Positions 2,140 to 64,000 of a DNA stretch of 64,000 bases are shown one piece after another. The stretch comes from Parcubacteria group bacterium ADurb.Bin159. GTDB taxonomy: Bacteria > Patescibacteriota > Patescibacteriia > UBA2591 > MWDC01. The notes beneath the pieces are model-generated. The model made no database searches, had not been told where the DNA came from, and saw only the letters and a program-made list of their open reading frames with translations. The translations under genes were made by a program, and so were the position numbers. Within the stretch, counting starts at the first letter, position 1. Each line of letters starts with the position of its first letter. The stretch lies in NCBI GenBank assembly GCA_002070355.1, contig MWDC01000001.1, positions 67,994-131,993 of the forward strand. Direction: 5' to 3'.

Positions 2140-3687
2140 TTATTTAAAAATTAACCTTTTCTTGCATTCTTCTTCTCCTAAAATTTGCATAATTTGATAC
2201 AAATCAGGAGTTTTGGTTCTGCCGGTAATAGCAAACCTTATCACTTGGGCTATCTCCCCAATATGCCCTCGATATTTATCTTTATTGTTTTTATATGTTT
2301 TTATGTCCGGGGCAAAATTGAAATTAGCGGCAATTTGTTTGATTTTTTCTAACCATTTTTCTCGGGAATCATTAAAATCAAATATTTTTTTATATTGCCC
2401 AATAATCTCTTTTATCTCTTCCGATTGAAGCACGCTTTTGAAATTAGCCCAATCCTGAGGAACAAATTTTTCTTTTATAAAAAAAGCAAATGTATCTTTT
2501 ACTTCTGACCAATGGCTAATATCTTTTCTTGGTTTCTCCCCTCCCCGTTCAATAGAAAAAATAGCCAGCCAATATTTTTTATCTTTTTTTAAAATCCTTT
2601 TAAAATCATTATCGTATTTTGAAGCCCAAGCTAAAACTTCTTTATATACTTCTTCTGCCTTAATTTTTGAAATAATTTCTTTGGAAATATCATCTAATTT
2701 TATTTTATCAAAAAGCGGACCGTTGCTTGCTGATAAACCCTTTAAAGATAATTTAAATTCAGTATAGGGCTTATCTGGATTATTTTTTCTCCAATCCTCA
2801 AAGTCCGAATTTGCTAAATTCATTAAATATTCTATAACGGCAATTTTCGGATATCCTTCTTTGTCATAAAAAGAAATATTAGCTTCCGGATCTTTTCTTT
2901 TAGATAACTTTCTTTTGCCACCCGATTCATCTATTTTATTAATTGGAGCAATATGACCATAATTTGGACGCTCCAAATTTAACGCTTCAAACAATTCATA
3001 ATGTATCGGCACTGATGACAACCACTCGTCACCGCGAAAAATATGTGTTGTTCCCATAAGATAATCATCAATTACGTGGGCGAAATGATAGGTGGGCAAA
3101 CCATCAGATTTCATTATAACCACATCTAAATCGTTTTCCGGCAATTCTAGCCATCCTTTAATAAGGTCATTATGGATAAATTTATTTTTATTATTGCCCA
3201 ATGACTTAAATCTAATAACATACGGCTTATTTTTAACTAACATTTTTTTCACCATTTCTTCATCCGCCTCTCTCCATTTAGCCCACTTGCCATAATAGCC
3301 CGTTCTTACTTTTAATTTTTCTTGTTCTCTTCGCATTTCTTCTAACTCTTCCTCTGTGCAAAAACAAGGATAAGCCCGGCCAATTTCTATTAAATATTTT
3401 ATAAACGCTTTATAAATTTCTTTTCTTTTTGATTGCCGATAAGGACCATAATTTCCCTTTTCTTTTCCGTTAATATCTTCTCCCTCGTCTGGCGATAAAT
3501 TAAATTTGTCCAATGATTCAATAATAATTTTGTAAGCATCTTTAATTTCTCTTTTTTTGTCCGTATCTTCTATCCGCAAAAAATAAACTCCGTTTGTCTG
3601 ATGAGCAAAACGTTCGGATATAAGAGCGGTATAAATGCTCCCTATATGCATAAAACCAGTAGGACTCGGCGCTATTCTGGTCACCAT
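2140..3687 (-). CDS. gltX: Glutamate--tRNA ligase (class I). The true start is probably Met61 of the track ORF, at 3687.
   Basis: RIAPSPTGFMHIGS (HIGH motif) and KLSKRK (KMSKS motif). AAGGGG lies 4 nt upstream of the internal ATG. The 180 nt upstream of that ATG carries an inverted copy of repeat family A, so the 575-aa track ORF is over-extended. Confidence 0.85.
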   Translation of the reverse strand: MVTRIAPSPTGFMHIGSIYTALISERFAHQTNGVYFLRIEDTDKKREIKDAYKIIIESLDKFNLSPDEGEDINGKEKGNYGPYRQSKRKEIYKAFIKYLIEIGRAYPCFCTEEELEEMRREQEKLKVRTGYYGKWAKWREADEEMVKKMLVKNKPYVIRFKSLGNNKNKFIHNDLIKGWLELPENDLDVVIMKSDGLPTYHFAHVIDDYLMGTTHIFRGDEWLSSVPIHYELFEALNLERPNYGHIAPINKIDESGGKRKLSKRKDPEANISFYDKEGYPKIAVIEYLMNLANSDFEDWRKNNPDKPYTEFKLSLKGLSASNGPLFDKIKLDDISKEIISKIKAEEVYKEVLAWASKYDNDFKRILKKDKKYWLAIFSIERGGEKPRKDISHWSEVKDTFAFFIKEKFVPQDWANFKSVLQSEEIKEIIGQYKKIFDFNDSREKWLEKIKQIAANFNFAPDIKTYKNNKDKYRGHIGEIAQVIRFAITGRTKTPDLYQIMQILGEEECKKRLIFK

Positions 3688-3740
3688 TGCCCCTTGAGGC
3701 AATTTTCTTTTTGGATATCGCTTAAAAATCTCTTCTCGAT

Positions 3741-3834
3741 GGGGACAGTCCCCAAAAAACGACCCCAAAAAGCTCGCATCAATATTAGCTTTTCTAGAAG
3801 AACTTTTGAATTTAGGGCTGTGAACCCTAAATTT
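3741..3834 (-). repeat. Repeat family A, copy 0 (inverted orientation, divergent)
   Basis: Contains ggggacagtcccc and aatttagggctgtgaaccctaaattt. Aligns with the reverse complement of the other A copies. Confidence 0.6.
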
Positions 3835-4043
3835 ATTTCTTTTAATATTTTTTATTATTTTTGCCATAATTTATTATTTATCCTAAAGTAAAAATGTTTT
3901 TTAACCCTAAAACTTTATTTTACACATTTACATATTCAATTTGCCTTATTTTCAAGATACTCTGTTTTCGAGATTTGTCAATTTATATTTGAGATACAAC
4001 AAAAACAGGGCTTTCCTTGTTTTTACTAATTTTAAAAGGCGCC

Positions 4044-6123: not shown

Positions 6124-6205
6124 CTAATCCTCCTTTTGTTGTTTAAGTTTTAATTGTTTTTTGATTTAATTATTTGATAATATAACAAAAATTGGAAAAA
6201 AGTCA

Positions 6206-6309
6206 AGCTAAATAAAAATTTAGGGTTCACAACCCTAAATTTGAAAATTCGTCCTAAAAGCCAATGTTTATGCGGGTTTGCGGAGGTCGATTTTTGGGGA
6301 CTATCCCCC
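6206..6309 (+). repeat. Repeat family A, copy 1
   Basis: aaatttagggttcacaaccctaaattt (10-bp stem hairpin) ...ccaatgtttatgcgg... ggggactatcccc palindrome. Confidence 0.7.
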
Positions 6310-9153: not shown

Positions 9154-10299
9154 CTATTCCTCTTCAGCGGAAACACATTTATGGGCTAGGCATTGAACAG
9201 CAGGGGCAGGAACGCAGAGGTCAATCATTTCGCTGCATTGCTTGCTGTAAATATCCATTTTTTTGTAAAACTGGTCCTTGTCAACTGCTTTGTTTATAAA
9301 ATGATAACAACCCCAATCAATATACTCTCCTCCTAATATTAAAATATCACAATCAGAATCGGTTTCGCAATAATTGGCATTTTTAATATCGTTCTCAATA
9401 TTATTATACATTTCTTTACAAGATAAATTTTCAAAAAATGATAGTTGCTGAACGGTTAAGGAATGTTTAATTTTATCAAATTGTTTTATTAAAGACGCAC
9501 GGTCAAATTCTGAAATAGTGCCTTCCGGATAATTAGCAATATTAGTGGAATGAATAAAATAACGCACCGCAAGACATGGATGAGTCCCCGGCAATGCCCA
9601 AACTTTTTCTTCATAAAAATTGCCTGCTGCTCCTTCGTTTGTTGAAGCGAAAGAATAATAAATGCCATTTTCATTTATAGTTTGAACATCGGTATTACCA
9701 TAAATAAACAATCCAGCATTGCAATTTCTAACTGCTGGAATTATTTCTACTGAAACTCCGGTATCATAGCTTGATAAATTAGTGCCAAGAGCAAGGGTTT
9801 CCGGAATAGTAAATTTGACACCTGATATATTTTTATCCGGCCCAAGCCCTTGATATTTATAAGAAGTATCTACTAAATAATCAGCTGGATAGCGAATAGT
9901 AAAACCTGCTGCTTCGTCTAAATAACTATTAGGTAAGTCATTTACATACTCAATTCGACTGTAACAATTTTCTTGACTATTAGCTTCATCAAATCCTTGA
10001 ATATTTTCGCAGGCTTCTTTAGCTTTTTCTTTATCATAAGTAGAAACAACCTCTGCGATATATTCAAAACAACTATCTTTCTTGGGAACATTTTCCATTT
10101 CTGCGCATAATTGCATAGCCTTTTTGAAATCGGATTTTTCTGAATCGGAATTTATTGTCTCCATCATTTCATAAAAATTACAGATATTTTTTCCGTAAAT
10201 CAATTTACATTTAAGACGAGAATTTAACAACAGCCAAACGCCCCCTATTAAAAACAGCGCGATAAATAAAATAATAATAATTTTTTTATTCTTGCTCAT
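9154..10299 (-). CDS. Membrane-anchored/secreted Cys-rich hypothetical protein
   Basis: N-terminal TM (IIIILFIALFLIGGVWLLL) followed by a Cys-rich extracytoplasmic region. Confidence 0.45.
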   Translation of the reverse strand: MSKNKKIIIILFIALFLIGGVWLLLNSRLKCKLIYGKNICNFYEMMETINSDSEKSDFKKAMQLCAEMENVPKKDSCFEYIAEVVSTYDKEKAKEACENIQGFDEANSQENCYSRIEYVNDLPNSYLDEAAGFTIRYPADYLVDTSYKYQGLGPDKNISGVKFTIPETLALGTNLSSYDTGVSVEIIPAVRNCNAGLFIYGNTDVQTINENGIYYSFASTNEGAAGNFYEEKVWALPGTHPCLAVRYFIHSTNIANYPEGTISEFDRASLIKQFDKIKHSLTVQQLSFFENLSCKEMYNNIENDIKNANYCETDSDCDILILGGEYIDWGCYHFINKAVDKDQFYKKMDIYSKQCSEMIDLCVPAPAVQCLAHKCVSAEEE

Positions 10300-10380
10300 T
10301 TTTCAAATTTATTTAATTTTTGTTTTTAAATCTTTTAAATATTACTTTTAACTTTTCGGCGATGGCTGTATAACTTTATA

Positions 10381-10407
10381 TTATAAAATTTTATAAAGTT
10401 CGTCAAC
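10381..10407 (-). promoter_or_regulatory. Candidate sigma-70 promoter (minus strand TTGACG-N15-TATAAT) inside the extended repeat
   Basis: Reverse complement reads TTGACGaactttataaaatttTATAAT, about 85 bp upstream of the 9154..10299 start. The same motif recurs at 22699-22725. Confidence 0.4.
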
Positions 10408-10429
10408 ATCTAATAATGTATAAAAAGAA

Positions 10430-10522
10430 AAATTTAGGGTCCACAACCCTAAATTTAAAAATTCGTCCTGAAAGCCAATGTTAATGCAATGTTTCTGTGG
10501 TCTCTTTCTGGGGACTGTCCCC
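10430..10522 (+). repeat. Repeat family A, copy 2. An ~90-bp extension upstream (10340-10429) is shared with copy 5.
   Basis: Near-identical to copy 3 (12098-12201). Confidence 0.75.
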
Positions 10523-10580
10523 AAATAGTGTGCCTCTTGATAGTGTCCTGTTTAGCGCCCCCATTCGTTTATTTCTTTTT

Positions 10581-11729
10581 TTAGGAAAATTTCAATGCTT
10601 CTAAAATTACAGAGGCAACTTTATGAGGTTTAATTAGTTTCAAGCAGGTCAATTCTTTACAACTTTTCTTCTGACAATTTTTACAAGGCAAACTACAGTA
10701 AAAGAGATGTAGCCTTTTTGTGAACGGTCGCCAGCGAACAGGATCATTGGCAGCCGAAAAGATAGAAACAACCGGTATATTTAAGGCTGCAGCTAAATGC
10801 CCGGGACCAGAATTTACACCAATAAAAATTTTAGCCCAGGCAATTAAAGCGGCTAAATCAGATAGATTGGGATTAATAACCTGAATTACATTAGAATCAT
10901 TAATACCTTTGGTTATTTGCTTAATCAAGTTTTCCTCACCTTTACCAACAACCAAAATAATCTTTACTGGGGCAGAATTGAGTAATTCCTTTATTAATTT
11001 ATGCCAATGGGCAACAGGCCACATTCTAGAAGGATCCCTGCTGCCGGGATGCATTATAATTAACACATCATTTTTGCGAACACCCTTTCTAAATAAAAAA
11101 TTATTAGCCCATTGCCTTTCTTCGGCTAAAAGGGGCCAATTTAATTTAATATTTTCTTTCTCTATTTCAATGCCTAATAGCTCCAGAAGATCCAAATAGA
11201 TAAAAATTTGATGCTGCTTTTCGTTCAAAACAGGCACATCTGTTAAAAAGTTACCTAAACCTCCGTGATCATAGCCAATTCTTCTTTTTATTCTAGCCAA
11301 AAAAAGTAAAAGAATAACTAAAGGATCGCCCTTCGTATCAAAGGATAGATCATATTTTCTTTTCTTTAAGGTTTGAATTAATATAAAAAAAGAGATAAAA
11401 CTCTTAAAAAAATCTCCCTTTTTTCTCTTTTGGTTTCCCCAAAAAGGCAAAAAGCTAATAACCCTGTTTACGCTTTTTATTCTTTTAAAAACATTTTCTG
11501 AATATGGATTAGTTAAAACATCTATTTCCGCTTTTTCAAAACGACTTTTTAAAATACTTAAAAAAGGAGATAGCAATATAGCATCTCCTATATGACCAAA
11601 ATTAACTATTAAAATTTTTGAATAATAATTTTTGTTAACAACTTTTCTTTTGGGAAGCCATTTTAGAAACCAATCAATAATTGAAAAAAGAATGGTCAAC
11701 CCTCGTTTTTTGTAGACGTATTTTACCAT
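10581..11729 (-). CDS. Glycosyltransferase family 9 (heptosyltransferase-like)
   Basis: GHIGDAILLSP, GVNSGPGHLAAALNIPVVSIF, and a Cys-rich C-terminal tail. Confidence 0.65.
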   Translation of the reverse strand: MVKYVYKKRGLTILFSIIDWFLKWLPKRKVVNKNYYSKILIVNFGHIGDAILLSPFLSILKSRFEKAEIDVLTNPYSENVFKRIKSVNRVISFLPFWGNQKRKKGDFFKSFISFFILIQTLKKRKYDLSFDTKGDPLVILLLFLARIKRRIGYDHGGLGNFLTDVPVLNEKQHQIFIYLDLLELLGIEIEKENIKLNWPLLAEERQWANNFLFRKGVRKNDVLIIMHPGSRDPSRMWPVAHWHKLIKELLNSAPVKIILVVGKGEENLIKQITKGINDSNVIQVINPNLSDLAALIAWAKIFIGVNSGPGHLAAALNIPVVSIFSAANDPVRWRPFTKRLHLFYCSLPCKNCQKKSCKELTCLKLIKPHKVASVILEALKFS

Positions 11730-12097
11730 CTTATAATTCTTACAAAGTAAAATTACAATGTCCTATGAAGCGTCACTAAGCAAGTCTTAAATTTCGAACA
11801 AAGCGAGAAATTAAGGTTCTGCCAAGTAAAGCGAAGTGCGGCACTTATTCAATTATCTCTAATCGGTTAGGAAAATTTGTTAATATCCTAAACAATATTT
11901 ACCTGCTCTCTAAAGATAAATCAATGCCAACTGCTCCTTTTATTTTATTTAGGCCGCAGTCTACATCTAAAATTTTTAATTTTGAATTTTGTCTAATTAT
12001 AAACAACAATCTCAATTGACAAAATTCAAATAATCTTGGCGAAGTTTTTCCACTGGTCCATCGCCACCTATTATTTTACTATTCATCGCAAAATTGT

Positions 12098-12201
12098 AAA
12101 GATTTTAAAAATTTAGGGTCCACAACCCTAAATTTAAAAATTCGTCCTGAAAGCCAATGTTAATGCAATGTTTCTGTGGTCTCTTTCTGGGGACTGTCTC
12201 C
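12098..12201 (+). repeat. Repeat family A, copy 3
   Basis: About 90 nt identical to copy 2. Confidence 0.75.
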
Positions 12202-12225
12202 GACTCCTTATATGTCCCCGACTCC

Positions 12226-14124
12226 TTATACAACAAATTGACTATTATATAAAGAAGCATAAAAGCCATTTCTGGAAATCAGTTCTTCATGTGTCCCCTG
12301 CTCAACAATACTGCCATCACGAATTGCTAAAATTAAATCAGCATTTCGAATAGTGGAAAGCCTGTGAGCAATAATAAAACTTGTTCTACCTTTCATCATT
12401 TTATCCATTGCTGCCTGAATAATTATTTCTGTACGGGTATCAACAGAGCTTGTTGCTTCATCTAAAATTAACATTGGAGCATTAGCCAGCATTGCCCGAG
12501 CTATAGTTAAAAGTTGTTTTTCACCCTGAGAAATATTATCGGCTTCCTCGCTAATTTGCATTTGATAACCTCCTGGCAGAGTACGAATAAAATGATCGGC
12601 ATAAGCTGCCTCTGCGGCTTTAACTACTTCTTCATGAGAGACGTTTTCCTTGCTATAAGCAATATTCTCTTCAATTGTGCCATTAAATAGCCAAGTATCC
12701 TGCAATACCATACCAAAAAGTTTTCTTACATCAGACCGCTTCATTTTTCTAATATCTATCCCATCAATTTTAATAGCTTCGCTATTAACATCATAAAAAC
12801 GCATCAAGAGATTGACTATAGTTGTTTTGCCTGCTCCAGTTGGTCCTACAATAGCAACTTTTTGGCCGGGCTTAATAGTAACGTTAAAATCTTTAATAAT
12901 CATTTTCTCGGGCGTATAACCAAAAAACAAATGGATAAAATCTACTGCGCCCTTTACTTCTTTTAAAATAACAGGATTAGGAGTTTCTGGCGCTTCATCT
13001 GCTTCTTCTAAAAACTCGAATACTCTTTCTGCAGCAGCTGCTGTAGATTGAAGCACATTAGCAATGCTAGCAGTTTGGGTAATAGGGCGAGTAAATTGAG
13101 TCATATATTGTATAAAGGCCTGAATACTACCAATGCTCATCCTCCCCTGAATAGCCAACCATCCTCCCAGTACTGAAATAGCAACAAATCCACAATTCTC
13201 AATAAAATTTATTATAGGATGAAGAAGACTTGAAAAAAAGTGAGATTTCCAAGCGTTCTCATAAAGTTTATTGTTAATTCTATGAAAAATAGAGATTGAC
13301 CTCTGCTCGCCATTAAAAGCTTTCACTATTGTATGACCGGAAAACATCTCTTCAATGTGGCCATCAATTTTCCCTAATGAAACTTGGTGATTAAAAAAAT
13401 ATTTTTGCGATTTTTTAACAACAAAACTTGTTAAAAAGAAACTAAGAGGCAAAATTACGACTGCCACTAATGTTAGCTGCCAACTTATTATAACCATCAT
13501 AACAAGAATACCGATAATAGTAGTAGTGGCACTAACAATTTGAATTAAACTCTGGTTAAAGCTTTGGCTTACTGTATCTACATCGTTTGTTACACGACTC
13601 AAAATATCACCATGGCTTCCTTGGTCGAAATAACGCAATGGTAATTGATTTATTTTTTGAGAAATATTCTTTCTTAAATTAAATGCTACTTTTTGAGTAA
13701 CCCCTGCCATAATCCACCCCTGAAGATAGCTAAACAAGACGTTTAATAAATAAATTCCAATTAGTATTTCTATTAAACGAATAATTGCCGCAAAATCGAT
13801 ACCACTCCTTTGAGAAAAATTGGAACCTCCTGTCTGTATGCCCGCAACAATTTTATTAGTAATGTCCCCTAATATTTTAGGAGTAATAACGCTAAAAATA
13901 GTACTAAGTATTGCAAACACTAAAACTAAAATAATTGAAACATGGTATGGCTTTAAATATTTTATAAGTTTACGCATCGTGCCTTTAAAATCTTTGGGCT
14001 TTTCAACTGCTCCACGCATTCCTCTACCACGACCTCTGCCCATACCAAAACCACCTGGCCTTGGCCTTTTAGGAGGTAAATTAGTTGGAAAATTATTTGG
14101 TTTTGAAACAGATTCTTTAGACAT
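12226..14124 (-). CDS. ABC transporter permease/ATPase (exporter half-transporter) with an N-terminal Gly/Arg-rich tail
   Basis: Six TM helices followed by an ABC NBD (GPTGAGKTT, LSGGQ-like signature, Walker B). N-terminus is GGFGMGRGRGRGMRG. Confidence 0.8.
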   Translation of the reverse strand: MSKESVSKPNNFPTNLPPKRPRPGGFGMGRGRGRGMRGAVEKPKDFKGTMRKLIKYLKPYHVSIILVLVFAILSTIFSVITPKILGDITNKIVAGIQTGGSNFSQRSGIDFAAIIRLIEILIGIYLLNVLFSYLQGWIMAGVTQKVAFNLRKNISQKINQLPLRYFDQGSHGDILSRVTNDVDTVSQSFNQSLIQIVSATTTIIGILVMMVIISWQLTLVAVVILPLSFFLTSFVVKKSQKYFFNHQVSLGKIDGHIEEMFSGHTIVKAFNGEQRSISIFHRINNKLYENAWKSHFFSSLLHPIINFIENCGFVAISVLGGWLAIQGRMSIGSIQAFIQYMTQFTRPITQTASIANVLQSTAAAAERVFEFLEEADEAPETPNPVILKEVKGAVDFIHLFFGYTPEKMIIKDFNVTIKPGQKVAIVGPTGAGKTTIVNLLMRFYDVNSEAIKIDGIDIRKMKRSDVRKLFGMVLQDTWLFNGTIEENIAYSKENVSHEEVVKAAEAAYADHFIRTLPGGYQMQISEEADNISQGEKQLLTIARAMLANAPMLILDEATSSVDTRTEIIIQAAMDKMMKGRTSFIIAHRLSTIRNADLILAIRDGSIVEQGTHEELISRNGFYASLYNSQFVV

Positions 14125-16144: not shown

Positions 16145-16237
16145 AAATTTAGGATCCACAACTCTAAATTAAAAAATTCGCCCTAAAAGCCAATGTTAAT
16201 GCGGTATTCTCGTAGTCTCTTTCTGTAAACTGTCTCC
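16145..16237 (+). repeat. Repeat family A, copy 4 (left flank of the defence island)
   Basis: aaatttaggatccacaactctaaatt...ccaatgttaatgcggtattctcgtagtctctttctgtaaactgtctcc. Confidence 0.7.
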
Positions 16238-16431
16238 AAATGCGTCCCCGAATGCAAAATTATAAAATTATTCTTCTGTTTTTTGTAAAATCAATCTCAT
16301 AATTAAACCTGATAAATATAAAAACGCTTCCGTATCTTCCAATTAAAAAGACAAAAGCAATGATAACAAAGATTTTCAAACCCCACTTAAAAGCTAATGT
16401 CTCAACAAAACCTTCTAAACCATAAAAACAA

Positions 16432-17124
16432 TTATTTCTTTTGATTAGTTGTATAATCACATTTCGGGTAATTAGAGCATCCGTAAAATTCTCCAAATTT
16501 GCCAGTTTTTTTCACTAAATTTCCGCCACAGCATGGGCAAATTCGAGACGCTTCTCTTGCCTTATCTTTATCCTTTTTAGCCATTTTGATATACCGAATA
16601 AGTTTGTATCCATCTATAAGTTCAATTGGCTTATCTTCAGCAAATTTCTCAGCTTCAAGTGTAAATTTATTTGTGGTAATAAAATATGCCTTTCCATTAG
16701 CAATATGGTCAGCCAAAGCACCATAGAAATCTCTGACATCGCCAACCGTTACCTCTGAGGTTATAAACTTTTTGCATTGAATGTAGCTTTTTACTCCGTC
16801 TTTTTCAATAATAACGTCAATGCCTCCGTCGTGCGATCCGCCGACTGCTTTAGATTTGTAGCCAAGCCGCGAAAACAAATCGGCAATATAATCCTCAAAT
16901 TCCGATGGCTTCATGCCACGAAGCCATTGCAATAGATCACGATCCGAACGCCATTTTTCTCCTTTTCTGAATTTTCGGCGAATATGCCAATTATCAATTT
17001 CCAAATTAAGCCAATAAAAGAATAATTTCATAACAACAATCGCCAATAAAACTGCCCAAAGCGGCCATAGCTTCCATAAAATCGGTAGTAAATTTTTAAT
17101 TATTTCCCAGAAATTAATTTGCAT
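16432..17124 (-). CDS. Membrane-anchored Mrr-cat (PD-(D/E)XK) restriction-endonuclease-like protein with a C-terminal topoisomerase-type C4 zinc ribbon
   Basis: N-terminal TM helices, then DLFSRLGYKSKAVGGSHDGGIDVIIEKDGVKSYIQCKKF (Mrr_cat signature D..D..QCK), then CPCCGG...CSNYPKC. Confidence 0.65.
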   Translation of the reverse strand: MQINFWEIIKNLLPILWKLWPLWAVLLAIVVMKLFFYWLNLEIDNWHIRRKFRKGEKWRSDRDLLQWLRGMKPSEFEDYIADLFSRLGYKSKAVGGSHDGGIDVIIEKDGVKSYIQCKKFITSEVTVGDVRDFYGALADHIANGKAYFITTNKFTLEAEKFAEDKPIELIDGYKLIRYIKMAKKDKDKAREASRICPCCGGNLVKKTGKFGEFYGCSNYPKCDYTTNQKK

Positions 17125-17130
17125 ATAATT

Positions 17131-20100
17131 TTAGTTTATAATCTCCTCCAATCTCCAAAAAGTGCTTCCACCTTCACGAATCAAATCGTCGATAAGTTTA
17201 TAAGTATCACCTTTTGTTTCGGCATTTTCATAGAGAGTCTTAATTGCCCCAAACCATTCCTCGTCATACATAAATGGCATGCGCATTTTACCACCTCGCA
17301 CATCACCTTCAAGTAAAGAAAGACGGGCAATCTCCAACGTATCTTTAGGTGCAGCTTTAGCCAATTCATTGATAGACTTAGTGAGAGCGTAATCCCATTC
17401 CAAAACACCCTTAGTTTTTTCTAAGGTCGCTTTTATTTGTCCAGCTAACCAGGCTGGTTCAAAGATTTTTTTCTCAAGATTCATCCAAAATCCAAACGCA
17501 ACAAATAGCTTCGGGTCGTCATAATTCTTAAGCAACCATTCCCAAAATTCAGTTAATCTTTTTTTAATTGCTGGGTCTTTTTTCAACTGCTCATTTACAC
17601 GATCATCATCGCCAGAAATGAACATCCGCCCGATAAAACTGATAAACTTGCTTTGCCGTTCAACATCTCGCTTCCAGAATTTCTTGAAAAGAGAATGATC
17701 AAACCCGAATTTTTCATGATAGACAACAAACGCCAACGCCAAATGAACAGCTATTCCTTCCTTTAGTTCTTTGAAATATTTGCGTTTTGAGTCCTCGTTG
17801 CCAGTCAAACTTAAGCCACGCTCATATAATTTTTGGAATTCTTGATCAAAGAATATTTCCTCATAAAGATTATTAGCAAGATATCCTTCCCAAGCAGCAA
17901 GATAAAGGTGTTTTTTAGTCGCTTCTTCTGGAAAAATTTGAGTCAAAAGCCCATGTATCCAATCTCTGTCACGGAAGTAGAAAGATGGTAGATAATATCC
18001 AAACATAAACATTAAGGCACGAGTATCTTCTTTTTTTAAGACTCTCTCATAGAGCTCCTTAATGTCTACGCTAATTTTAATCTTATCATCTTTTGAAAAT
18101 TGCTTTCCGTCTTGGTAAACAAACAACACAAAAGCCTGAAACGCCCGACCACGCACCGAATTAATCGCCATCGTAAACGGATCACTAACATAATTTTCTT
18201 CCTTATCGCCAGGGGAATGGGTCTTTATCGTCGCTGTTCCTAGCTCTTCGTCTTGTGGTTCTGGATCGGGGTATACTAAAAGATAGCTGAGAATCTCGAA
18301 AAGCTGACTGCGGTATTTGGAGAAATCTATAAGAATTTTACCGTCGTTTTCACTCAATAATTCTTGCAGGACATCCGTCATCACCGAGTGCACTCCAGTC
18401 CAACTCAAAAGCCATGCGTCAAACTTCTCTCGTTCCCTGATTTTATGGTTAAAGGCTTTTGCAATACCCGAATCCTTAATAGCAATAAAAACTTCTATCA
18501 GTTTATCCCACTGGATATCTGCCGCCTTTGTTTTGTCAGCACGTATAGCTTCTTGAATGCCTCGAAAAAACGAGTAAGTATAATGCTCGTCGAGAACATC
18601 CCTCTCAAAAAATAAACTGGCGTTCTGGATATAATCCTGTAATCGCTTAGCAATATCAACACGCAATTGTTCCTCTACGCCTTTAGCATTTAAGGGATTC
18701 AAAAAATCATCACTTGTGTTCTCTTTGCTCAAAGCTTCTGGCTTCCAGTCATTTCTTAATTTTTTGGCAATGTCAGCAATGGAAAGTTTACTAAATTCCT
18801 CTTGTGAAACTGCAGCTCTTGGTTTTACAAAACCGCTCACTATTTTTCCAATGGACGGTTCGGGTTCAAAAGTAGGATCACATTTTTTACCGAATATTTT
18901 TTCACAATCTTCTTTTTCTTCTGAAGTCAAAGAGTCATAAATACTGGAAAGAATCTGCCAGCCATCGCGCCTATACCATTGTTCTTCTTTTTTATCTTCA
19001 CGACTTTGTCCAAAATGCTTAAAGACATTCGATACATATTCACGCTGATAATCGAAATTGAGGACATTAAAGCTCTGTTTAAGGGCTTTCTTGTACTCTG
19101 TTCCAGATTCAATCTCATAATAATGTTTACCATCCTCCATCACCTCAAATAATTTAAAAAAGGACGCCTGTAATTCTGCCTGAAAAGCAACGGGACACAA
19201 ACTCAAAACAAAAAGACGCAGTCGCCACATCAACCTGCTTTCTGGTAAGGTTTGAATATATTTCTTATAAACCTCTCTGACCAATTCTGATTTGTCACAA
19301 TTATTGCCAATTAGTCTTTGACTGAGTGCTTTAATGGTCACTACTAAATCTTTGACGTTTTCTTGATCTGAATAATGTTTTTCATCGCCCAATTCCAAAG
19401 AAAAAAAATCAACATCAAAAAGATAAAAAGGGTCATGAATCGGAAATACTTCATTCTTCTCGGCGTCTTCGCCCAAACGCACGATTGCCGCCATCGTTCT
19501 TGTTGTAATCTCTAATGCTTTTTCAAGATATTGATCGCCTACAGCCACTAAATACTCAAAGACTTTCGTGTAAGAAAGGTCTGTGAAATAAAAAGGATTA
19601 TCCGATGGATAATCACGAGAAGTTGGTTTTGTTTCTTCTTTTGCTCTCACAGTAAGCACTGCTTCGGCAAGGACCAAGATATTCTCATAATCCTTAGCAG
19701 CGGCAAGTGTTTGGAATATTTTTTTATAATCAAATCCCCATTGATTAAATACGCTCATCAACCGCACCCAACCATCATCACGAATTTTCGGCACTATTCT
19801 CGCTAACTGCTCCGCTGGCAGAGAACTGCAAATTCTCAAAAATTGATCGACAATTTCGGGATTAAAATTATCTTTTGGGATAGAAACCGAAAGCATAATA
19901 TCTACCACTTCTTTCGCTTTTTTCTCCGCTATTCTTACAAGATAATTCAGTTCTGGGGTTGTTCGATATCCATATCTCGTTGGATCGTCGACTTTCTGTT
20001 TAATCACATCTAAGAGCCCATTATTCCAAAGCCAATCAAGCCAATTCTCATCTGCTTTTGTAAAAAAATATTGTCGTGCATCAAGATTTAAACCAATAAG

Positions 20101-20145
20101 TTCTCGAATTTTCTCTGGATCAAATTTTGCTGATTGTTTATCCAT
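17131..20145 (-). CDS. Large (1004 aa) hypothetical protein; no ATPase, nuclease or other recognisable motif
   Basis: Long uninterrupted ORF packed 5-6 bp from its neighbours in the R-M/Mrr operon. Predicted mostly alpha-helical. No Walker A. Confidence 0.6.
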   Translation of the reverse strand: MDKQSAKFDPEKIRELIGLNLDARQYFFTKADENWLDWLWNNGLLDVIKQKVDDPTRYGYRTTPELNYLVRIAEKKAKEVVDIMLSVSIPKDNFNPEIVDQFLRICSSLPAEQLARIVPKIRDDGWVRLMSVFNQWGFDYKKIFQTLAAAKDYENILVLAEAVLTVRAKEETKPTSRDYPSDNPFYFTDLSYTKVFEYLVAVGDQYLEKALEITTRTMAAIVRLGEDAEKNEVFPIHDPFYLFDVDFFSLELGDEKHYSDQENVKDLVVTIKALSQRLIGNNCDKSELVREVYKKYIQTLPESRLMWRLRLFVLSLCPVAFQAELQASFFKLFEVMEDGKHYYEIESGTEYKKALKQSFNVLNFDYQREYVSNVFKHFGQSREDKKEEQWYRRDGWQILSSIYDSLTSEEKEDCEKIFGKKCDPTFEPEPSIGKIVSGFVKPRAAVSQEEFSKLSIADIAKKLRNDWKPEALSKENTSDDFLNPLNAKGVEEQLRVDIAKRLQDYIQNASLFFERDVLDEHYTYSFFRGIQEAIRADKTKAADIQWDKLIEVFIAIKDSGIAKAFNHKIREREKFDAWLLSWTGVHSVMTDVLQELLSENDGKILIDFSKYRSQLFEILSYLLVYPDPEPQDEELGTATIKTHSPGDKEENYVSDPFTMAINSVRGRAFQAFVLFVYQDGKQFSKDDKIKISVDIKELYERVLKKEDTRALMFMFGYYLPSFYFRDRDWIHGLLTQIFPEEATKKHLYLAAWEGYLANNLYEEIFFDQEFQKLYERGLSLTGNEDSKRKYFKELKEGIAVHLALAFVVYHEKFGFDHSLFKKFWKRDVERQSKFISFIGRMFISGDDDRVNEQLKKDPAIKKRLTEFWEWLLKNYDDPKLFVAFGFWMNLEKKIFEPAWLAGQIKATLEKTKGVLEWDYALTKSINELAKAAPKDTLEIARLSLLEGDVRGGKMRMPFMYDEEWFGAIKTLYENAETKGDTYKLIDDLIREGGSTFWRLEEIIN

Positions 20146-20150
20146 ATTAC

Positions 20151-20756
20151 TTATTTACCTCCATTTATATCTTCTATTAGCTGAGGATTTATTCTCAAAA
20201 CCTCATCAAGCATTTGATGCACATCAAGCTGCCTTGTCAATGCCTTATTCATAATTTTTTCAAACTCCACTAAAAGTTTTTCAAACTCAACCTTATTAAA
20301 AGAAGAAAAATCAAAATTTTTATCCCATTGAGGATCAACTCCATGATGCGTTATATCATTAAGTTTTTTCCACAGAGGTTCTACTTTACTGCTATAGAAA
20401 TTTTTATCAAAACTTTCATTAGAACTTTCATCAAAATTTTTATCAACCGTTACAGAGCCAAAATTTTTAAACGCATCCATTCTCTTACTTGAAACTTGTT
20501 TCACCTGAATACTTAAGAATGGATAAAGAATCTCTCGTAAGGAGTTTGCCGCTTGGGCAATACGATCGGGATTACTTTTACATTCTTCCCTAATAGCAAA
20601 AACGGCACCTCGAAACATATCTGAAGGCTTTATTTTTAGTCCTCCTCGCTCATGCCACTCATCTAGGCGTCTACATAAATTTTCTTGTCCATCGGTTAAA
20701 CGCACGGGTGGGAGAGCATTATTTCCTATAGATTGTAGTGATGCATCACCGCCCAT
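20151..20756 (-). CDS. Hypothetical 201-aa protein with a DKNF(D/Y)xSS triple repeat
   Basis: ORF-track protein with 3-5 bp spacing to the restriction endonuclease upstream and the 1004-aa ORF downstream. Confidence 0.5.
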   Translation of the reverse strand: MGGDASLQSIGNNALPPVRLTDGQENLCRRLDEWHERGGLKIKPSDMFRGAVFAIREECKSNPDRIAQAANSLREILYPFLSIQVKQVSSKRMDAFKNFGSVTVDKNFDESSNESFDKNFYSSKVEPLWKKLNDITHHGVDPQWDKNFDFSSFNKVEFEKLLVEFEKIMNKALTRQLDVHQMLDEVLRINPQLIEDINGGK

Positions 20757-20759
20757 AAA

Positions 20760-21665
20760 TTATATATCTCTCAAGATATTCCTTAAAAAACCTTTTTTGA
20801 TGAAATTAATATTTAAGACATAATCCATTTGTTCAATTGCCTTCCTGATTTGATTTTGTCCTTGTCGCCAGCCATTTCCATCGGTAATCCAAACAAATTG
20901 CCAGCCACTATTTTGGAGCTCTCTTTGCCGATTTATGTAGGCATCAACAATCTCTTGAGGTTTTGAACCCTGCCCGCTGTAAAAATTAACTTCCATTGAT
21001 AGAAGTTTTGTTCCTTTTTTGATCGCAAAATCGGGAGTTCTATACCGGAGTTTCTTCGGGATTTTTACACCGCGTTCTTCGAATTTACTGAACTTCCCCT
21101 TAGGGAATATCTCAATATTCTTAAATTCTTTGGTGATATTTTGAAGTTCTTCCTCTACCACTTTTTCCATAAAACTACCACTTCGATTCTTACGTGCATT
21201 GCTATCCAAACCTACTTCAACCCCTAAGAGATAATCGTTAAGAACTCGAATGATTTTGAATAACTCTTGGATACCACTTTTTTTTACAAATTGAATAAAT
21301 TTCTTGATGTCACTTGGGGTTAAATCTTTTGAACAATCAAAACAACATACTTGATTTTTGCTTATATCCTCTAGTACATCAAATTTCTCATCACGCATTG
21401 CAACAAGAAGTGGTAAAACCCTTGCTGTCTTAGGGTATTCTGTTAAAATTTTCTCTAAATCTTTATCAAAATTTTTGGATTGAGTAAGTGTTCCCAAAAT
21501 TCCAATTTCAACTTTGTATTTCTCTACATTTGATTTAACCTTTTTCCAATTTACAAAAAAATCGTAAGTGCGATTAGTAGATAATAGTGAGCCAATAAAT
21601 GCTTCGTTAATCTGCTCAATATTAGTAAAACCAAAAAATGATTTATATGTTTGTATTTTTGCCAT
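20760..21665 (-). CDS. Type II restriction endonuclease, DpnII/MboI family (predicted GATC specificity)
   Basis: GVEVGLDSNARKNRSG and EVNFYSGQGSKP...WITDGNGW...LNINF align with R.DpnII motifs recalled from memory. Confidence 0.7.
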   Translation of the reverse strand: MAKIQTYKSFFGFTNIEQINEAFIGSLLSTNRTYDFFVNWKKVKSNVEKYKVEIGILGTLTQSKNFDKDLEKILTEYPKTARVLPLLVAMRDEKFDVLEDISKNQVCCFDCSKDLTPSDIKKFIQFVKKSGIQELFKIIRVLNDYLLGVEVGLDSNARKNRSGSFMEKVVEEELQNITKEFKNIEIFPKGKFSKFEERGVKIPKKLRYRTPDFAIKKGTKLLSMEVNFYSGQGSKPQEIVDAYINRQRELQNSGWQFVWITDGNGWRQGQNQIRKAIEQMDYVLNINFIKKGFLRNILRDI

Positions 21666-21670
21666 ATTGC

Positions 21671-22513
21671 TTAAATTAATTTAATAAACATTTGCTTGCG
21701 CTTAATTAAGTCTTTGAGTCGCTTTTTTGAAAGTTCAAGATATTTTTTCTCATTATCAATCCCTATAAATTTTCTATCGTATAGAATAGCAACTAAACCA
21801 GTAGTAGAGCTCCCTGCGAAAGGATCGAGTATTATGTCGCCAGGATTTGTGCTTGACAGAATAATTCTTTTCAAAAGCTCCATTGGCTTTTGTGTGGGGT
21901 GTTTACCAAATATTTTTTCTTCTGGCTTGGGAGTCCCTATTGCCCACACCGAACGCATTTGTTTATTTTGCCGATGGATAAGGTCGTTTCTAAACGCACG
22001 CATCTGCTCGTAATTGAACACGTGCTTTGCTTTCTTTTCTTTACGTGCCCACAATAATGTTTCGTGGCTGGCAGTAAAATAACGGCAACTTAAATTGGGA
22101 GAAGCATTGGGTTTATACCAGGAGATATCATTTAAGATATGATAACCGCTTAATTGAAGTGCGTAACCACATTGATAAATTGAGTGATAAGTCCCACTAA
22201 TCCAAATTGTACCGTAAGGTTTAAGAACTCGACGGCAAGCTTGAACCCAAGTAATATGAAAATCTAAATCCTTTTGAAAACCTTTGCTTTTGTCCCAATC
22301 TCCCTTATTAACACTTACACGTCTGCCAGCGTGAACGCTAAAACCACCATTAGAAAGATTATACGGTGGATCAGCAAAAATCATATCAATCGAATTGTCT
22401 GGAAGCTGTTTCAAAATCGACAGATAATCTGAACAGTATAAAACAAAATTACCTTCAGAAAAATAAGGTTTTTTCTTGATAGAAGATAGAACTTTTTGAG
22501 AATTAGTTTCCAT
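21671..22513 (-). CDS. Beta-class N6-adenine DNA methyltransferase, M.DpnA (DpnIIB)-like
   Basis: Motif IV IFADPPYNLSNGG precedes motif I DPFAGSSTTG. Strong similarity to M.DpnA through ...NLSCRYFT...KHPTQKP.... Confidence 0.8.
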   Translation of the reverse strand: METNSQKVLSSIKKKPYFSEGNFVLYCSDYLSILKQLPDNSIDMIFADPPYNLSNGGFSVHAGRRVSVNKGDWDKSKGFQKDLDFHITWVQACRRVLKPYGTIWISGTYHSIYQCGYALQLSGYHILNDISWYKPNASPNLSCRYFTASHETLLWARKEKKAKHVFNYEQMRAFRNDLIHRQNKQMRSVWAIGTPKPEEKIFGKHPTQKPMELLKRIILSSTNPGDIILDPFAGSSTTGLVAILYDRKFIGIDNEKKYLELSKKRLKDLIKRKQMFIKLI

Positions 22514-22698
22514 AAATATGTCTTTTTTTCAACTTGGATTTATTAGTTTATTTTTTCCTGTCTACTGTTTATTATAACAAATAATTCCTAAAAATATAAT
22601 TAAAGAGGCCTTAATTTTTGAAAAATTATTGAATTGTCTTACTGATTAATTTCATTTATATTGCTTTTAACTTTTCCGTGGTGGTCGTATAACTTTAT

Positions 22699-22725
22699 AT
22701 TATAGAACTTCATAAAGTTCGTCAA
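22699..22725 (-). promoter_or_regulatory. Candidate promoter of the defence operon (minus strand TTGACG-N15-TATAAT)
   Basis: Same promoter-like sequence as 10381-10407; lies in the extended copy of repeat A upstream of the MTase gene. Confidence 0.35.
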
Positions 22726-22751
22726 TATCTAATAATGCATAAAAAATAAAA

Positions 22752-22843
22752 AAATAGGGCTCACAACCCTAAATTAAAAAATTCGTCTTAACAGCCAATG
22801 TTAATGCGGTATTCTCGTAATCTCTTTTTGAGGACTGTCCCCA
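22752..22843 (+). repeat. Repeat family A, copy 5 (right flank of the defence island); the extension at 22660-22751 is shared with copy 2.
   Basis: aaatagggctcacaaccctaaatt...ccaatgttaatgcggtattctcgtaatctctttttgaggactgtcccc. Confidence 0.7.
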
Positions 22844-22919
22844 AATGCCAAATCTAAGCCCAATCATTTCAGCTTTGATTGGGCTTTATTTTTTGGCTCT
22901 AAAATGATAAAATTAATTT

Positions 22920-25139: not shown

Positions 25140-26375
25140 TTAAAGATTATCAAAATCTTGCTCCTTTTCACCTTCTTCCCCTATTTCTTTAAGTTCTCCA
25201 TCTTTTTGAACGGTTTTTTGAAAATAATCTTCAATTTTCTTTAATTTTTCCAATGTACGAATGCGTTCTAACGCCTTAGCCTCAATTTGGCGAATCCTTT
25301 CTCGAGTTACATGGAAAACTGCTCCCACTTCTTCTAAAGTATGGGAAACGCTGTCAGTCAAACCAAAACGCATATCTAAAATTTTTCTTTCCCTTTCCGG
25401 CAAGTCAACTACTATTTCTTTAACATAATCTCTTAATAATCTTAAAGCGGCAACGCGGTCCGGGCTTATTTGTTTAACATCTTCCACTAAATCCCCTAAT
25501 TCTGTTTCTTTGTCATCATCTTTACCTACATTCATTTCCAAAGACATTGTGCTTTGCGATGCCTTAAGCAAACGCTCTGTTTCGTCTATAGGAAGACCAA
25601 CTTCAGAAGCTATCTCTTCAGAAAAGGGCTGTCTGCCAAGTTGCTGAGTCAGCCAACGTTCAATCTGATAAATCTTTCCCAAAATTTCCACAATATGAAC
25701 AGGGATTCTAATGGTTCTTGATTGGTCGGCTAAAGAACGAGTAATCGCTTGTTTAATCCACCAAGTGGCATAAGTGGAAAATTTATAACCTTTTTTCCAA
25801 TCATATTTTTCTACCGCTCGAAACAAGCCAACATTCCCCTCCTGAATTAAATCTAAAAAACTTAAGCCGTAACCGGTAAATTTTTTAGCAATACTTACTA
25901 CTAAACGGAGATTCGCTTCAACTAATTTTTGAGTCGCTTCTTTGTCCCCTTTGTCTTTTCTTTTGGCTAATTCAACTTCTTCTTGCGGCGTTAAAAGAGG
26001 GACGCGGCCAATTTCTTTCAAATACATTTGAATAGAATCTGCTGATAATTGAGTTAAGTCAAAAAAAATCTCTTCTCCTTTAATTTTTTCTTTTTTTGAA
26101 GAAACAAGCATTTCGTCCTCCGTTTCTTCTGTGGAAATTCCCATTGAATCCACTTTGTCTAAAAATTCTTCAAATTTATCTAAATATTTTTCTATTTTAG
26201 GAAAAGCATAAAAAAATTCTTCGGTAGTTAAAAAACCTCTTTGTCTCCCTTTGGTTAATAGCTTTTCCGCTTCTTCTTCTGGCCATTTTGCCGAAGAACC
26301 TCTTTTTTTTACTTGTTTAATATTTTTTTTCTTAAAAGATTTTTTTGTTTTTTTCTTTTTTAAAACTTTAGTCAT
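25140..26375 (-). CDS. rpoD: RNA polymerase sigma-70 factor
   Basis: [26 protein letters not shown] (region 2.4/3) and region 4 ([24 protein letters not shown]). Confidence 0.85.
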
Positions 26376-31863: not shown

Positions 31864-32382
31864 AGCATCCTCCTTTATTTTATTTTTTTTTTAATTTTAA
31901 AGAACATCTGTTTGAGCGTTAACGCCCAATTATAATAAAATTTTATTTTAAAAAAGAGGGTTGGATTTATGTCCCCCTCCCGCATTCTATCTCTGTAAAA
32001 CAGGCCTCTTTTTTTATTTTAATTTTAATTTAACTTTTGATTAAAGTATAAAAAAATTTCGTATTTTGTCAATAAAAAAAATTTTAATGGGGTCAGACCC
32101 CCAAAATGGATCGCTTGAAACCCTTTATTTAAGCGGGTTCCCAAGGGAAAATTTAAATTTGGCACGATTTTGATTGATTTGAAAAATGGCAAAGCATTGT
32201 GGATAACATTAGAATATACTAGATGACCACAAGAGAATTAATTGCGATGCCAATCTATGTTTAATATCCCACTACGCTACTTATAAGTCTTTAAATTTAG
32301 CTTTATTATATCAGATTTTACCCCCCTTGTCACTCACTATTATTTTAAATAATAAAACATTAATTCTTCCATAAAAGAAATG

Positions 32383-32482: not shown

Positions 32483-33085
32483 TCATTTGGCTTCCTCTCC
32501 CTCATTCCCGATCTGGGTTTTGAGATTGTGCCAGCGACGGAGTTGCTCTCCGTGAATCCATACCTGCGAAAGGATGGACACAGCACAGCTATACACGAAT
32601 CCTGTGATGCCTTCGTTATCGGCAAGCTGAGACGCTTCTTCAGCGCATCCTTCGACCGTATCGCCGTTTGCGATCCGACCTTCCATTAAGCGAGCCCACC
32701 GCTCAGCGAAGCGAATAACTGCACTTCCGTATCCGTCGGTGTTGGCAGCCACAATTTTCTTCCAGCCTTCCTCGTCCCGAAGCGTCATCTTCTCGGGAGC
32801 AGTCATGAGAGCTCCTTCGAGTATGAGATTGTGGCGTCGCTGAGCTTCGTCAGCTTTGCGTTGCCGTTCCTTATACTCTGGAGAATTGACATACTCCTCG
32901 TGACGACGATTGGACTCAGCGCTGTAATACTTCACGATCGCATCGGCGTTATCGCCAGGGTTGGCTGTGAGTTCGATGTCATTAAACTTCGCCCTCACAA
33001 TTCCCTTCGTCTTCTTGGCCATCGCAACTATTGTGCGAGCGGTTTCGCTGATGTTTTCACCAGCAAGAGGTTTATACGTCTTCAT
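32483..33085 (-). CDS. Hypothetical 200-aa protein encoded in a GC-rich (~50%) foreign segment
   Basis: Clean ORF with a strong SD (AAAGGAGAAAT) 7 nt upstream of the ATG. Its composition differs markedly from the flanks. Confidence 0.5.
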   Translation of the reverse strand: MKTYKPLAGENISETARTIVAMAKKTKGIVRAKFNDIELTANPGDNADAIVKYYSAESNRRHEEYVNSPEYKERQRKADEAQRRHNLILEGALMTAPEKMTLRDEEGWKKIVAANTDGYGSAVIRFAERWARLMEGRIANGDTVEGCAEEASQLADNEGITGFVYSCAVSILSQVWIHGEQLRRWHNLKTQIGNEGEEAK

Positions 33086-36135: not shown

Positions 36136-36142
36136 ATTTTAA

Positions 36143-62575: not shown

Positions 62576-63115
62576 TTATTTATTTTTTGCCTGTTTAATA
62601 AATTCAACAATAAACCAAATCACCAAAATTACAAAAACAAAAGAACCAAAAATAATCAGCGAATTAGGAGGCAAACTAATCCCTCCTGACTTTTTTAATT
62701 GGTTATCTTCTACTAATGTTTTTTCTAAGGGAGACGGACAACCGATTCGCGCGCAATGACTCAATTCATTTTTGAGCTGCGTTTTTACAAGTTCACTTGA
62801 ACCGAGAAAATATTTATCCCCAATAAAAACAATCGGCACAGGAAAATCGTCTGCTCCTTCTACTGAATAAACTTTAGCCAAAGCTGAATATAAAATTACG
62901 CTCGATTCTTGAGTAATACTTAACTCAAAAATTTCTAAATTCTGGTTTTTGTCCTTATACGATGACAAAAAAAATTTCATATCTTGGCAATAAGGACAAG
63001 AGGGGGAATAAAAAAAATAAATTGTTGTTTTTGGGGCAGATGAAACAACTATAGGAATTAAAATTAAAATTCCTAAAATGAAAAATATTCTATAATTATT
63101 TATTCGCTTTTTCAT
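62576..63115 (-). CDS. Membrane-anchored thioredoxin/glutaredoxin-like thiol-disulfide oxidoreductase
   Basis: N-terminal TM, a CPYC active-site motif, and a second hydrophobic C-terminal segment. Confidence 0.5.
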   Translation of the reverse strand: MKKRINNYRIFFILGILILIPIVVSSAPKTTIYFFYSPSCPYCQDMKFFLSSYKDKNQNLEIFELSITQESSVILYSALAKVYSVEGADDFPVPIVFIGDKYFLGSSELVKTQLKNELSHCARIGCPSPLEKTLVEDNQLKKSGGISLPPNSLIIFGSFVFVILVIWFIVEFIKQAKNK

Positions 63116-63318: not shown

Positions 63319-64000
63319 TCAAGAAAAAAATTTAAATACTGCTTGATTAAATTTCTCCCCTCGCTCAAATTCATGAGCAAATAAACCAAAACTTGCCGCT
63401 CCCGGTGAAAGTAAAACAATATCCCCTTTTTGGGCAACTGATTTAGCTTGTTTCACGGCTTTTTCCATTGAGTTTGTTTCTTTTATAAAATCTAATTTTG
63501 AATTATATTTAGATATTTCTGCTTTTATTTTTTCCGTAGCCGTCCCTGTTAAAAGAATCACTTTTTTAATTTCATTTGCTTCCGCTTTTTGAATAATAAA
63601 TTCCGCAAATTTTTTAAAATCCAAATTTTTATCTGCGCCTCCGGCTATTAAAATAATTTTAGCGGTTGAATTTTTATTGTTGATTAAACTGCTTAATCCC
63701 GCTATAGCTGCTTCGGGAATAGTAGCCGTAGTATCATTAATAAAAGTGATCCCTTTTATTTTAGCCACCACCTCCATCCTCCCTTCTAAATTTTTGAACC
63801 TTTTAAGAGAATTTTTAATTTTCTTCTCTGGAATTTTAAATAACTTAGCTACTTCTAACGCCGCAGCCAAATTGTCTAAATTATGTTCTCCGTAAAAAAA
63901 CGTTTTCCAACCTTCCACTTTTTGACGATTAAAAAAAACAACTTTTGATTTTGCTTGTGGCGATATTTGTTTTAATAGAGAATCGTTATTATTAACAATA
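63319..64000 (-). CDS. murD: UDP-N-acetylmuramoylalanine--D-glutamate ligase, C-terminal part; gene continues beyond the window end
   Basis: Mur ligase C-terminal domain (FINDTTATIPEAAIAGL, IILIAGGADK). The frame stays open upstream of the track start at 63918. Confidence 0.7.
   Translation of the reverse strand, partial: IVNNNDSLLKQISPQAKSKVVFFNRQKVEGWKTFFYGEHNLDNLAAALEVAKLFKIPEKKIKNSLKRFKNLEGRMEVVAKIKGITFINDTTATIPEAAIAGLSSLINNKNSTAKIILIAGGADKNLDFKKFAEFIIQKAEANEIKKVILLTGTATEKIKAEISKYNSKLDFIKETNSMEKAVKQAKSVAQKGDIVLLSPGAASFGLFAHEFERGEKFNQAVFKFFS

Follow-up and report, generated by a model that had tools for sequence, protein, structure and literature searches.

A probable sigma-70-type promoter in a duplicated intergenic module of a Parcubacteria genome

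Intergenic repeats bearing promoters or terminators, such as the Correia elements and SPRITE, are well known (PMC10969869), and the Correia repeat-enclosed elements of Neisseria, like certain other MITEs, carry outward-reading sigma-70-like promoters (PMC10969869). The module described here is located in a 64,000-nucleotide stretch of contig MWDC01000001.1 of Parcubacteria group bacterium ADurb.Bin159 (hereafter the window). It resembles the Correia elements and MITEs in being a short intergenic repeat with a near-consensus candidate promoter facing the downstream gene, and in that its copies coincide with strain differences in gene content. It differs from them in that it has no terminal inverted repeats and no obvious target-site duplication, in the position of the candidate promoter outside the core repeat (in two of the six copies), and in the low copy number seen.

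The core repeat, here called repeat A, is similar to known intergenic repeat families in its length of about 95 nt, a terminator-like hairpin at one end, a recurrent 13-nt palindrome (GGGGACNGTCCCC) and its mosaic modules, but it comes from a member of Parcubacteria, does not resemble those families in sequence, and was not seen to be accompanied by a RAYT or transposase in the window. The module is also comparable to a sigma-70 promoter following a Rho-independent terminator, with which it shares the two boxes, an A/T-rich upstream region, a stem-loop with a U-tract and a primary sigma factor encoded nearby, while it differs from sigma-70 inter-operon promoters in its spacer of 15 nt instead of 16–17 nt and in the existence of two copies of a 228-bp unit. 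At most, the module would be a new example of the known promoter- or terminator-bearing intergenic repeats, in an under-studied phylum.

The promoter itself would be ordinary biology. To our knowledge, the promoters of bacteria of the candidate phyla radiation (CPR) are almost entirely unmapped, and a duplicated TTGACG-N15-TATAAT sequence beside a strong terminator provides a test case for E. coli-type promoter rules in the CPR. The candidate promoter could also become a part for future genetic tools.

Anatomy of the duplicated intergenic module

Nearly all genes of the window are located on the minus strand. The features of the two loci in which the module occurs, designated by the copies of repeat A that they contain (copies 2 and 5), are as follows:

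9154–10299, minus strand: gene of a 381-aa membrane protein with partial similarity to CPR proteins annotated as MliC-family
10300–10374, minus strand: putative 5′ UTR of the 381-aa gene, A-rich, unstructured and without a Shine-Dalgarno sequence
10372–10400: inverted repeat AACTTTATA-N11-TATAAAGTT, spanning the -10 box; possible operator
10380–10385, minus strand: candidate -10 box TATAAT, after a 15-nt spacer (10386–10400)
10401–10406, minus strand: candidate -35 box TTGACG
10428–10522, minus strand: repeat A, copy 2, consisting of GGGGACAGTCCCC, a conserved spacer of about 58 nt and the terminator hairpin
10430–10456, minus strand: terminator-like hairpin AAATTTAGGGTTGTGGACCCTAAATTT at the 3′ end of repeat A, with the tail TTCTTTTTAT at 10420–10429
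10510–10522, minus strand: palindrome GGGGACAGTCCCC at the 5′ edge of repeat A, followed by AGAAAGAG
16260–22513, minus strand: tightly packed string of defence genes, bracketed by copies 4 and 5 of repeat A
22571–22579, minus strand: proximal extended -10 element TGTTATAAT, located about 58 nt before the ATG of the methyltransferase (MTase) gene, in unique DNA
22614–22747, minus strand: copy-5 extension, homologous to 10300–10427, with the -35 box TTGACG at 22720–22725 and the -10 box TATAAT at 22699–22704
22745–22771, minus strand: terminator-like hairpin TAGGGTTGTGAGCCCTA of copy 5 with its T-tract (7 pairs, tail TTTTTTTATT)
22748–22842, minus strand: repeat A, copy 5, 81% identical to copy 2
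22856–22895, plus strand: terminator-like hairpin (AAGCCCAATCA/TGATTGGGCTT) with a T-tract, between copy 5 and a divergent 254-aa gene

A repeat finder and reading of the sequence revealed a two-copy direct repeat of 94 nt with 86% identity (10339–10432 and 22658–22751), each copy of which adjoins a copy of repeat A (10428–10522 and 22748–22842, respectively); the extra segment that the first-pass annotation had noticed beside copies 2 and 5 is therefore real. The extension had been described as about 90 bp long, but the segment common to the two loci actually measures about 228 bp (10299–10526 versus 22614–22842). Comparison of the copy-2 locus, from 10526 to 10299, with L005, an orthologue of the copy-5 locus, gave 82.6% identity over 230 nt. 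The similarity begins at the 5′ edge of repeat A, extends to the first base of the start codon (ATG) of the 381-aa gene and ends there, which indicates that the duplicated unit is a complete intergenic region comprising repeat A, the terminator, the block with the candidate promoter, and the putative 5′ UTR. At the other locus the homology stops at about 22614, and the ATG of the MTase gene (22513) follows after another 100 nt of unique DNA. Only copies 2 and 5, out of six copies of repeat A, have the extension, and its best-conserved part, and that of the whole 228-bp unit, is the promoter block, with about 91% identity versus 81% for repeat A itself.

The hairpin AAATTTAGGGTTGTGGACCCTAAATTT has a 12-pair stem with a folding energy of -12.3 kcal/mol (z = -4.1) and directly precedes a T-tract; judged by its stem and U-tract, AAATTTAGGGTTGTGGACCCTAAATTT with TTCTTTTTAT is predicted to be a textbook intrinsic (Rho-independent) terminator. 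Termination had earlier been ascribed to the GGGGACTGTCCCC hairpin, but no T-tract follows GGGGACNGTCCCC, and the predicted terminator is the other hairpin (10430–10456 in copy 2 and 22755–22771 in copy 5), which has a TTTTT tail. The GGGGAC palindrome is followed by AGAAAGAG, without a U-tract, and is therefore not a terminator in these copies; on the plus strand, the GGGGACTGTCCCC hairpin is followed by AAATAG or AAATGC, so that a U-tract is found on neither strand. The copy-5 terminator has no minus-strand gene upstream to stop, and the presence of the module there therefore looks historical rather than functional.

In the alignment of 11 distinct copies of repeat A, the consensus fold contained only the two terminal hairpins, with essentially no covariation (one compensatory pair among 13 predicted pairs, covariation term 0.04), and comparison of repeat A and the leader with Rfam families yielded sub-threshold matches only. 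The G+C-rich 13-nt palindrome occurs 10 times in the 64 kb, compared with 0.44 expected occurrences; a literature search on it returned nothing relevant.

Three other functions were considered for this DNA and rejected. An independent sRNA gene was dismissed since, by eye, no consistent promoter is present 5′ of the GGGGAC hairpin across the copies (copy 4 has TTTACA-N19-TATAAT there), and peptide coding was dismissed since the plus-strand ATG...ATG frame, likewise inspected by eye, is not kept at the amino-acid level between copies. A riboswitch or another known RNA family was rejected on the basis of the noise-level Rfam matches, the missing covariation in repeat A and the unstructured leader.

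The sixth copy of repeat A is inverted (3741–3834, plus strand) and lies inside the ORF 2140..3867 (minus strand), where it overlaps the first 61 or so codons of a 575-aa GluRS-like ORF as annotated by gene callers. Since the class-I motif region (MVTRIAPSPTGFMHIG) begins with an internal Met near 3684, the N-terminus given in the annotation is probably repeat DNA read as protein. D2, a second family of repeats, is represented at 36340 and 45017 (95% identical; 36135–36440 and 45017–45114) and shares with repeat A only the 5′ module GGGGACAGTCCCC...GCAAACCCGCAT. Two further GGGGACTGTCCCC units stand in tandem at 36145 and 36196, and another D2-like copy is located outside the window, to its left (L030, 14006–14100).

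The candidate promoter and its conservation

On the minus strand, the extension reads TTGACG-N15-TATAAT. This pattern and the position of the second site (22699–22725) are as first annotated, while the first site is located at 10380–10406 and not at 10381–10407; the two candidate promoters indeed face the 9154..10299 gene and the 21671..22513 MTase gene. The motif TTGACR-N15-TATAAT has two exact matches in the 64-kb window, both on the minus strand and at these two positions, versus 0.04 expected from shuffled sequences, and the two matches, being paralogues, amount to one independent occurrence. In both copies the boxes agree with the sigma-70 consensus hexamers at 11 of 12 positions, a level of at least 11/12 that is reached by nine intergenic sites in the window, and the DNA upstream of the -35 box is A/T-rich. 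The boxes of copy 2, on the coding strand of the 381-aa gene, directly follow the strong terminator on its 3′ side and are about 75 nt away from the ATG, and no other minus-strand promoter-like site with at least 10/12 matches was found between the terminator and this ATG.

The optimal spacer of E. coli sigma-70 promoters is 17 nt. The 15-nt spacer falls at the short end of the functional range (about 15–19 nt) and below the mode of the window, where the spacers of intergenic sites with at least 10/12 matches cluster at 15–18 nt (mode 16, with 11 sites; six sites at 15). Intergenic DNA of the window contains many TTGACA/TATAAT-type sites facing downstream genes, including TTGACA-N15/16-TATAAT sites in other intergenic regions and a perfect TTGACA-N16-TGCTATAAT at 33534–33561. 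A primary sigma factor that could read such sites, SigA, is encoded at 25140..26375 (411 aa; Pfam regions 1.1, 1.2, 2, 3 and 4); it keeps the region 2.4 and 4.2 motifs, including WWIKQAITR, which read the -10 and -35 boxes in E. coli sigma-70.

The leader of the 381-aa gene has a minimum free energy of only -0.8 kcal/mol, and a more diverged version of it is found in copy 5. The absence of a Shine-Dalgarno sequence is normal here, a motif of this kind being present in only 13 of 52 genes. In several genes a -10-like box, for example TGTTATAAT, ends 6–9 nt before the ATG (for instance at 56212–56220, at 22907–22915 and upstream of 62576..63115), an observation suggesting frequent leaderless mRNAs in this organism.

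Orthologous loci were gathered from several samples by pattern scans and exact-protein look-ups, and four haplotypes were distinguished: c2 (the window, L006, L024 and L032) and c2b (L009, which is the same contig as L036, and L033–L035) for copy 2, and c5 (the window, L008 and L018–L025) and c5b (L005) for copy 5. Of 134 aligned columns, 39 are variable, while none of the 12 box positions varies (P = 0.013), and the spacer measures 15 nt in all four haplotypes despite three transitions within it. A 50-nt block around the boxes, chosen post hoc, has 4 variable columns out of 50 versus 35 out of 84 elsewhere (Fisher P = 2e-5). Conservation of the boxes in other copies of the extended repeat had been proposed as a check on the promoter; both hexamers and the spacer length proved invariant across the four haplotypes. 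This conservation has little depth, since it involves two paralogous genomic copies and strains that are 98–99% identical, and it may stem from a recent duplication or from gene conversion, so that it supports the promoter reading, short of proof. A 24-codon small ORF on the minus strand with seemingly synonymous changes was also considered and discarded, as codon 18 of c2b is an in-frame TGA and c5 has no ATG.

The genomic context of the module differs between strains. In four contigs lacking a segment with a GT9-family gene, described below, the module is still attached to the 381-aa gene and has an ABC transporter gene as its new upstream neighbour. The candidate promoter thus travels with the downstream gene, as the gene's own promoter should.

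We consider the module of copy 2 to contain, with fair probability, a sigma-70-type promoter of the 381-aa gene. The extension would provide the core of an ordinary promoter of the SigA/sigma-70 type, with TTGACG, a 15-nt spacer, TATAAT and the A/T-rich upstream DNA, and this core and the unstructured leader of about 75 nt would together form the control region of the 9154..10299 gene. Transcription arriving from upstream would stop at 10430–10456 and restart near 10373. This activity, the start site and the direction of the duplication are what we infer from the sequence.

It appears rather unlikely that the extension is neutral duplicated DNA in which the boxes match by chance, the 381-aa gene and the defence operon being transcribed by read-through or from TGTTATAAT. 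In this DNA, with about 70% A+T, promoter-like matches overall are barely more numerous than in shuffled sequences (87 versus 70 ± 8), which, together with the reduction of the two box matches to one independent occurrence, the closeness of the strains, too near for deep conservation, and a proximal extended -10 element of the MTase gene that may do all the work, would be consistent with neutral DNA. Arguing against it are a match of 11/12 on the correct strand, between a strong terminator and a gene, where it is the sole site with at least 10/12 matches, the absence of variable box positions compared with 39 of 134 columns, and the higher identity of the promoter block (about 91%) than of repeat A (81%).

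Two unusually long non-coding gaps, 33086–33633 and 31864–32482, in which no Rfam family reached the threshold, may correspond to undescribed RNAs or long leaders. The first of them opens with the perfect promoter-like sequence mentioned above, about 450 nt upstream of the next gene, and the second contains two more strong promoter-like sites (32045 and 32305).

Recombination at repeat A

Copies of repeat A coincide with strain-specific breakpoints. In the window, copies 2 and 3 are 99%-identical direct repeats flanking a 1,582-bp segment (10525–12106), which carries a GT9 heptosyltransferase-family gene with one copy of repeat A and is present or absent depending on the strain; it is absent in four contigs from different samples (L009/L036, L033, L034 and L035). 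Contig L003 (1–2463), from another strain, has different defence genes from the window (16246 onward), which according to the translated ORFs encode a type I R-M specificity subunit-like protein and an Mrr-like protein, and homology between the two sets in 9 nt 5′ of copy 4. The stretch from copy 4 to copy 5 has the look of a hotspot for defence islands.

The boundaries of the repeat are sharp: contig L007, representing another locus, matches 6216–6308 only, with 93.5% identity to copy 1 and unrelated flanks, and the six copies found in 64 kb include the extension at two loci. Tandem duplications were observed at the 5′ edge of repeat A at 12195–12230 (minus strand), at 16232–16255 (minus strand) and at about 2420–2485 of L003 (three units), the units consisting of a few flanking bases and the left half of the palindrome (TATAAGGAGTCGGGGACA/TATAAGGAGTCGGAGACA and GCATTCGGGGAC/GCATTTGGAGAC). 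At the position of copy 1 (6214–6308), contig L029 of another strain (1305–1399) is 92.6% identical to copy 2 of the window versus 88.4% to copy 1, a pattern which suggests gene conversion or replacement among the repeat copies.

The strain-specific breakpoints at the GT9 segment and in L003, the bracketing of the defence island by copies 4 and 5, the tandem duplications at the hairpin edge, the L007 copy with its unrelated flanks, and the precedent of sigma-70-like promoters on MITEs (PMC10969869) could be taken as signs of a mobile promoter-bearing repeat of the Correia or MITE kind, or of a repeat A that acts as a recombination site exchanging cassettes under this promoter. We regard such a reading as distinctly unlikely. 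Apart from copies 2 and 5, no copy of the extension was found with blastn and an nhmmer profile in the window, about 10 kb to its left, about 8.5 kb to its right and the related contigs. No terminal inverted repeats joining the ends of the 95-nt or the 228-nt unit and common to both copies were detected, and the window proteins that were scanned contained no transposase, integrase or recombinase domain. There was no obvious flanking target-site duplication either, only the short tandem duplications at the 5′ edge of repeat A. Essential genes (ProRS and ABC transporters) are located between the copies, and the polymorphisms associated with the repeat are all explained by ordinary homologous recombination between dispersed repeats.

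The proposal of the first-pass annotation that the repeat acts as a portable terminator-promoter cassette looks doubtful, given the extension in two of six copies, the lack of terminal inverted repeats and the lack of further copies in about 18 kb of flanking DNA. Since the DNA common to the two loci includes the complete putative 5′ UTR of the 381-aa gene, that is, of a gene other than the one next to copy 5, duplication of the whole intergenic region fits better than a cassette. The second copy most likely would have originated by duplication or recombination of the entire intergenic region at a copy of repeat A, and a self-contained mobile cassette is the less likely origin. After copies 1 and 3 come other promoter-like sites, with no homology to the one in the module (TTGACT-N16-TATATT at 6179–6206 and TTTACA-N16-TAAAAT at 12073–12100), which points to a terminator followed by a promoter as the general intergenic build here.

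One could further speculate that repeat A, through its GGGGACNGTCCCC edge, is a recombination site for swaps of gene cassettes such as the GT9 segment and the defence islands, in the manner of an integron without a recognisable integrase, and that the 228-bp form brings in a terminator and a promoter for insulation and expression. If this were true, the long form would insulate and express whatever lands beside repeat A; we hold the idea to be very unlikely. The likeness to integron attC cassettes lies in co-oriented genes separated by repeats of about 95 nt, in the presence or absence of the GT9 gene together with a repeat, and in the location of a candidate promoter at one end of a variable array. 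However, repeat A has only two local hairpins and not the end-to-end imperfect-palindrome fold of attC, no integrase turned up in the proteins of the window that were scanned, and housekeeping genes occur between the copies, in segments with promoter-like sites of their own.

More distant copies of the repeat were also sought. The scan of genome contigs gave chance matches only, in coding DNA of Winogradskyella, the metagenome scan gave near-identical strains and L004/L007 only, and scans of viral sequences gave nothing relevant. The loci of two homologues of the 381-aa protein (P0002 and P0004) were not syntenic and did not contain the repeat. Since members of the repeat A family border strain-variable genes, among them a defence island, they may help to explain accessory-gene exchange in these tiny genomes.

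The defence operon at copy 5 and other features of the window

Copy 5 is located at the head of the strain-variable defence island, whose genes encode a type II MTase, a DpnII-family REase, a 201-aa protein, a 1004-aa Dsr1-like protein, an Mrr-type nuclease and a small ORF product. The idea that the extension drives this operon held up in part: the boxes face the MTase gene, but they are 186 nt away from its ATG, and a closer alternative is available in TGTTATAAT at 22571–22579. This perfect extended -10 element is conserved in L005, and all eight TGnTATAAT sites of the window are on the gene strand; to judge from the motif, it is an equally good candidate, either as a rival or as a tandem promoter of the defence operon. 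In the arrangement that we propose, copy 5 and the proximal extended -10 element would form a tandem pair, copy 5 being the distal promoter and giving a leader of about 180 nt.

The 1004-aa protein (17131..20145, minus strand) is matched by the PADLOC Dsr1 model over its C-terminal 690 or so residues only (E = 7.7e-19). Its gene is placed between those of the DpnII-type R-M pair and the Mrr-type nuclease, apparently in one operon.

The plus-strand hairpin at 22856–22895 is highly stable (-24.5 kcal/mol, z = -6) and has no plus-strand gene upstream; a plus-strand transcript, either antisense or small, might terminate there. It is highly improbable that the conserved block is mainly an operator (AACTTTAT-N13-ATAAAGTT) or, alternatively, part of a plus-strand transcript, in which a weak TTYATA-N16-AATAAT would drive repeat A and transcription through copy 5 would end at 22856–22895. 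The inverted repeat of the operator is kept in both copies and spans the -10 box, but it arises in 7–20% of shuffled sequences and shows no covariation, and an operator would go together with the promoter rather than take its place. For AACTTTATA-N11-TATAAAGTT the result was similarly not significant alone, with inverted repeats of at least 9 nt in 7% of shuffles. A plus-strand transcript would agree with the promoter-like site at 10390–10417 (9/12) and with the strong plus-strand terminator past copy 5, yet its boxes reach only 8–9/12, copy 2 is without a matching plus-strand terminator, and repeat A has neither covarying internal structure on either strand nor an Rfam match.

Elsewhere in the window, an exact-protein look-up of the product of 63319..63777 returned no record. 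At 56294–56367 (minus strand), ARAGORN reported a tRNA with a four-base anticodon (cgaa) and gave no identity for it, and the Rfam tRNA model matched with 51 bits. A 200-aa protein encoded at 32483..33085 (minus strand), in a chromosomal housekeeping neighbourhood, matches the Pfam family Tad4 (type I Thoeris inhibitor) with E = 2.7e-29.
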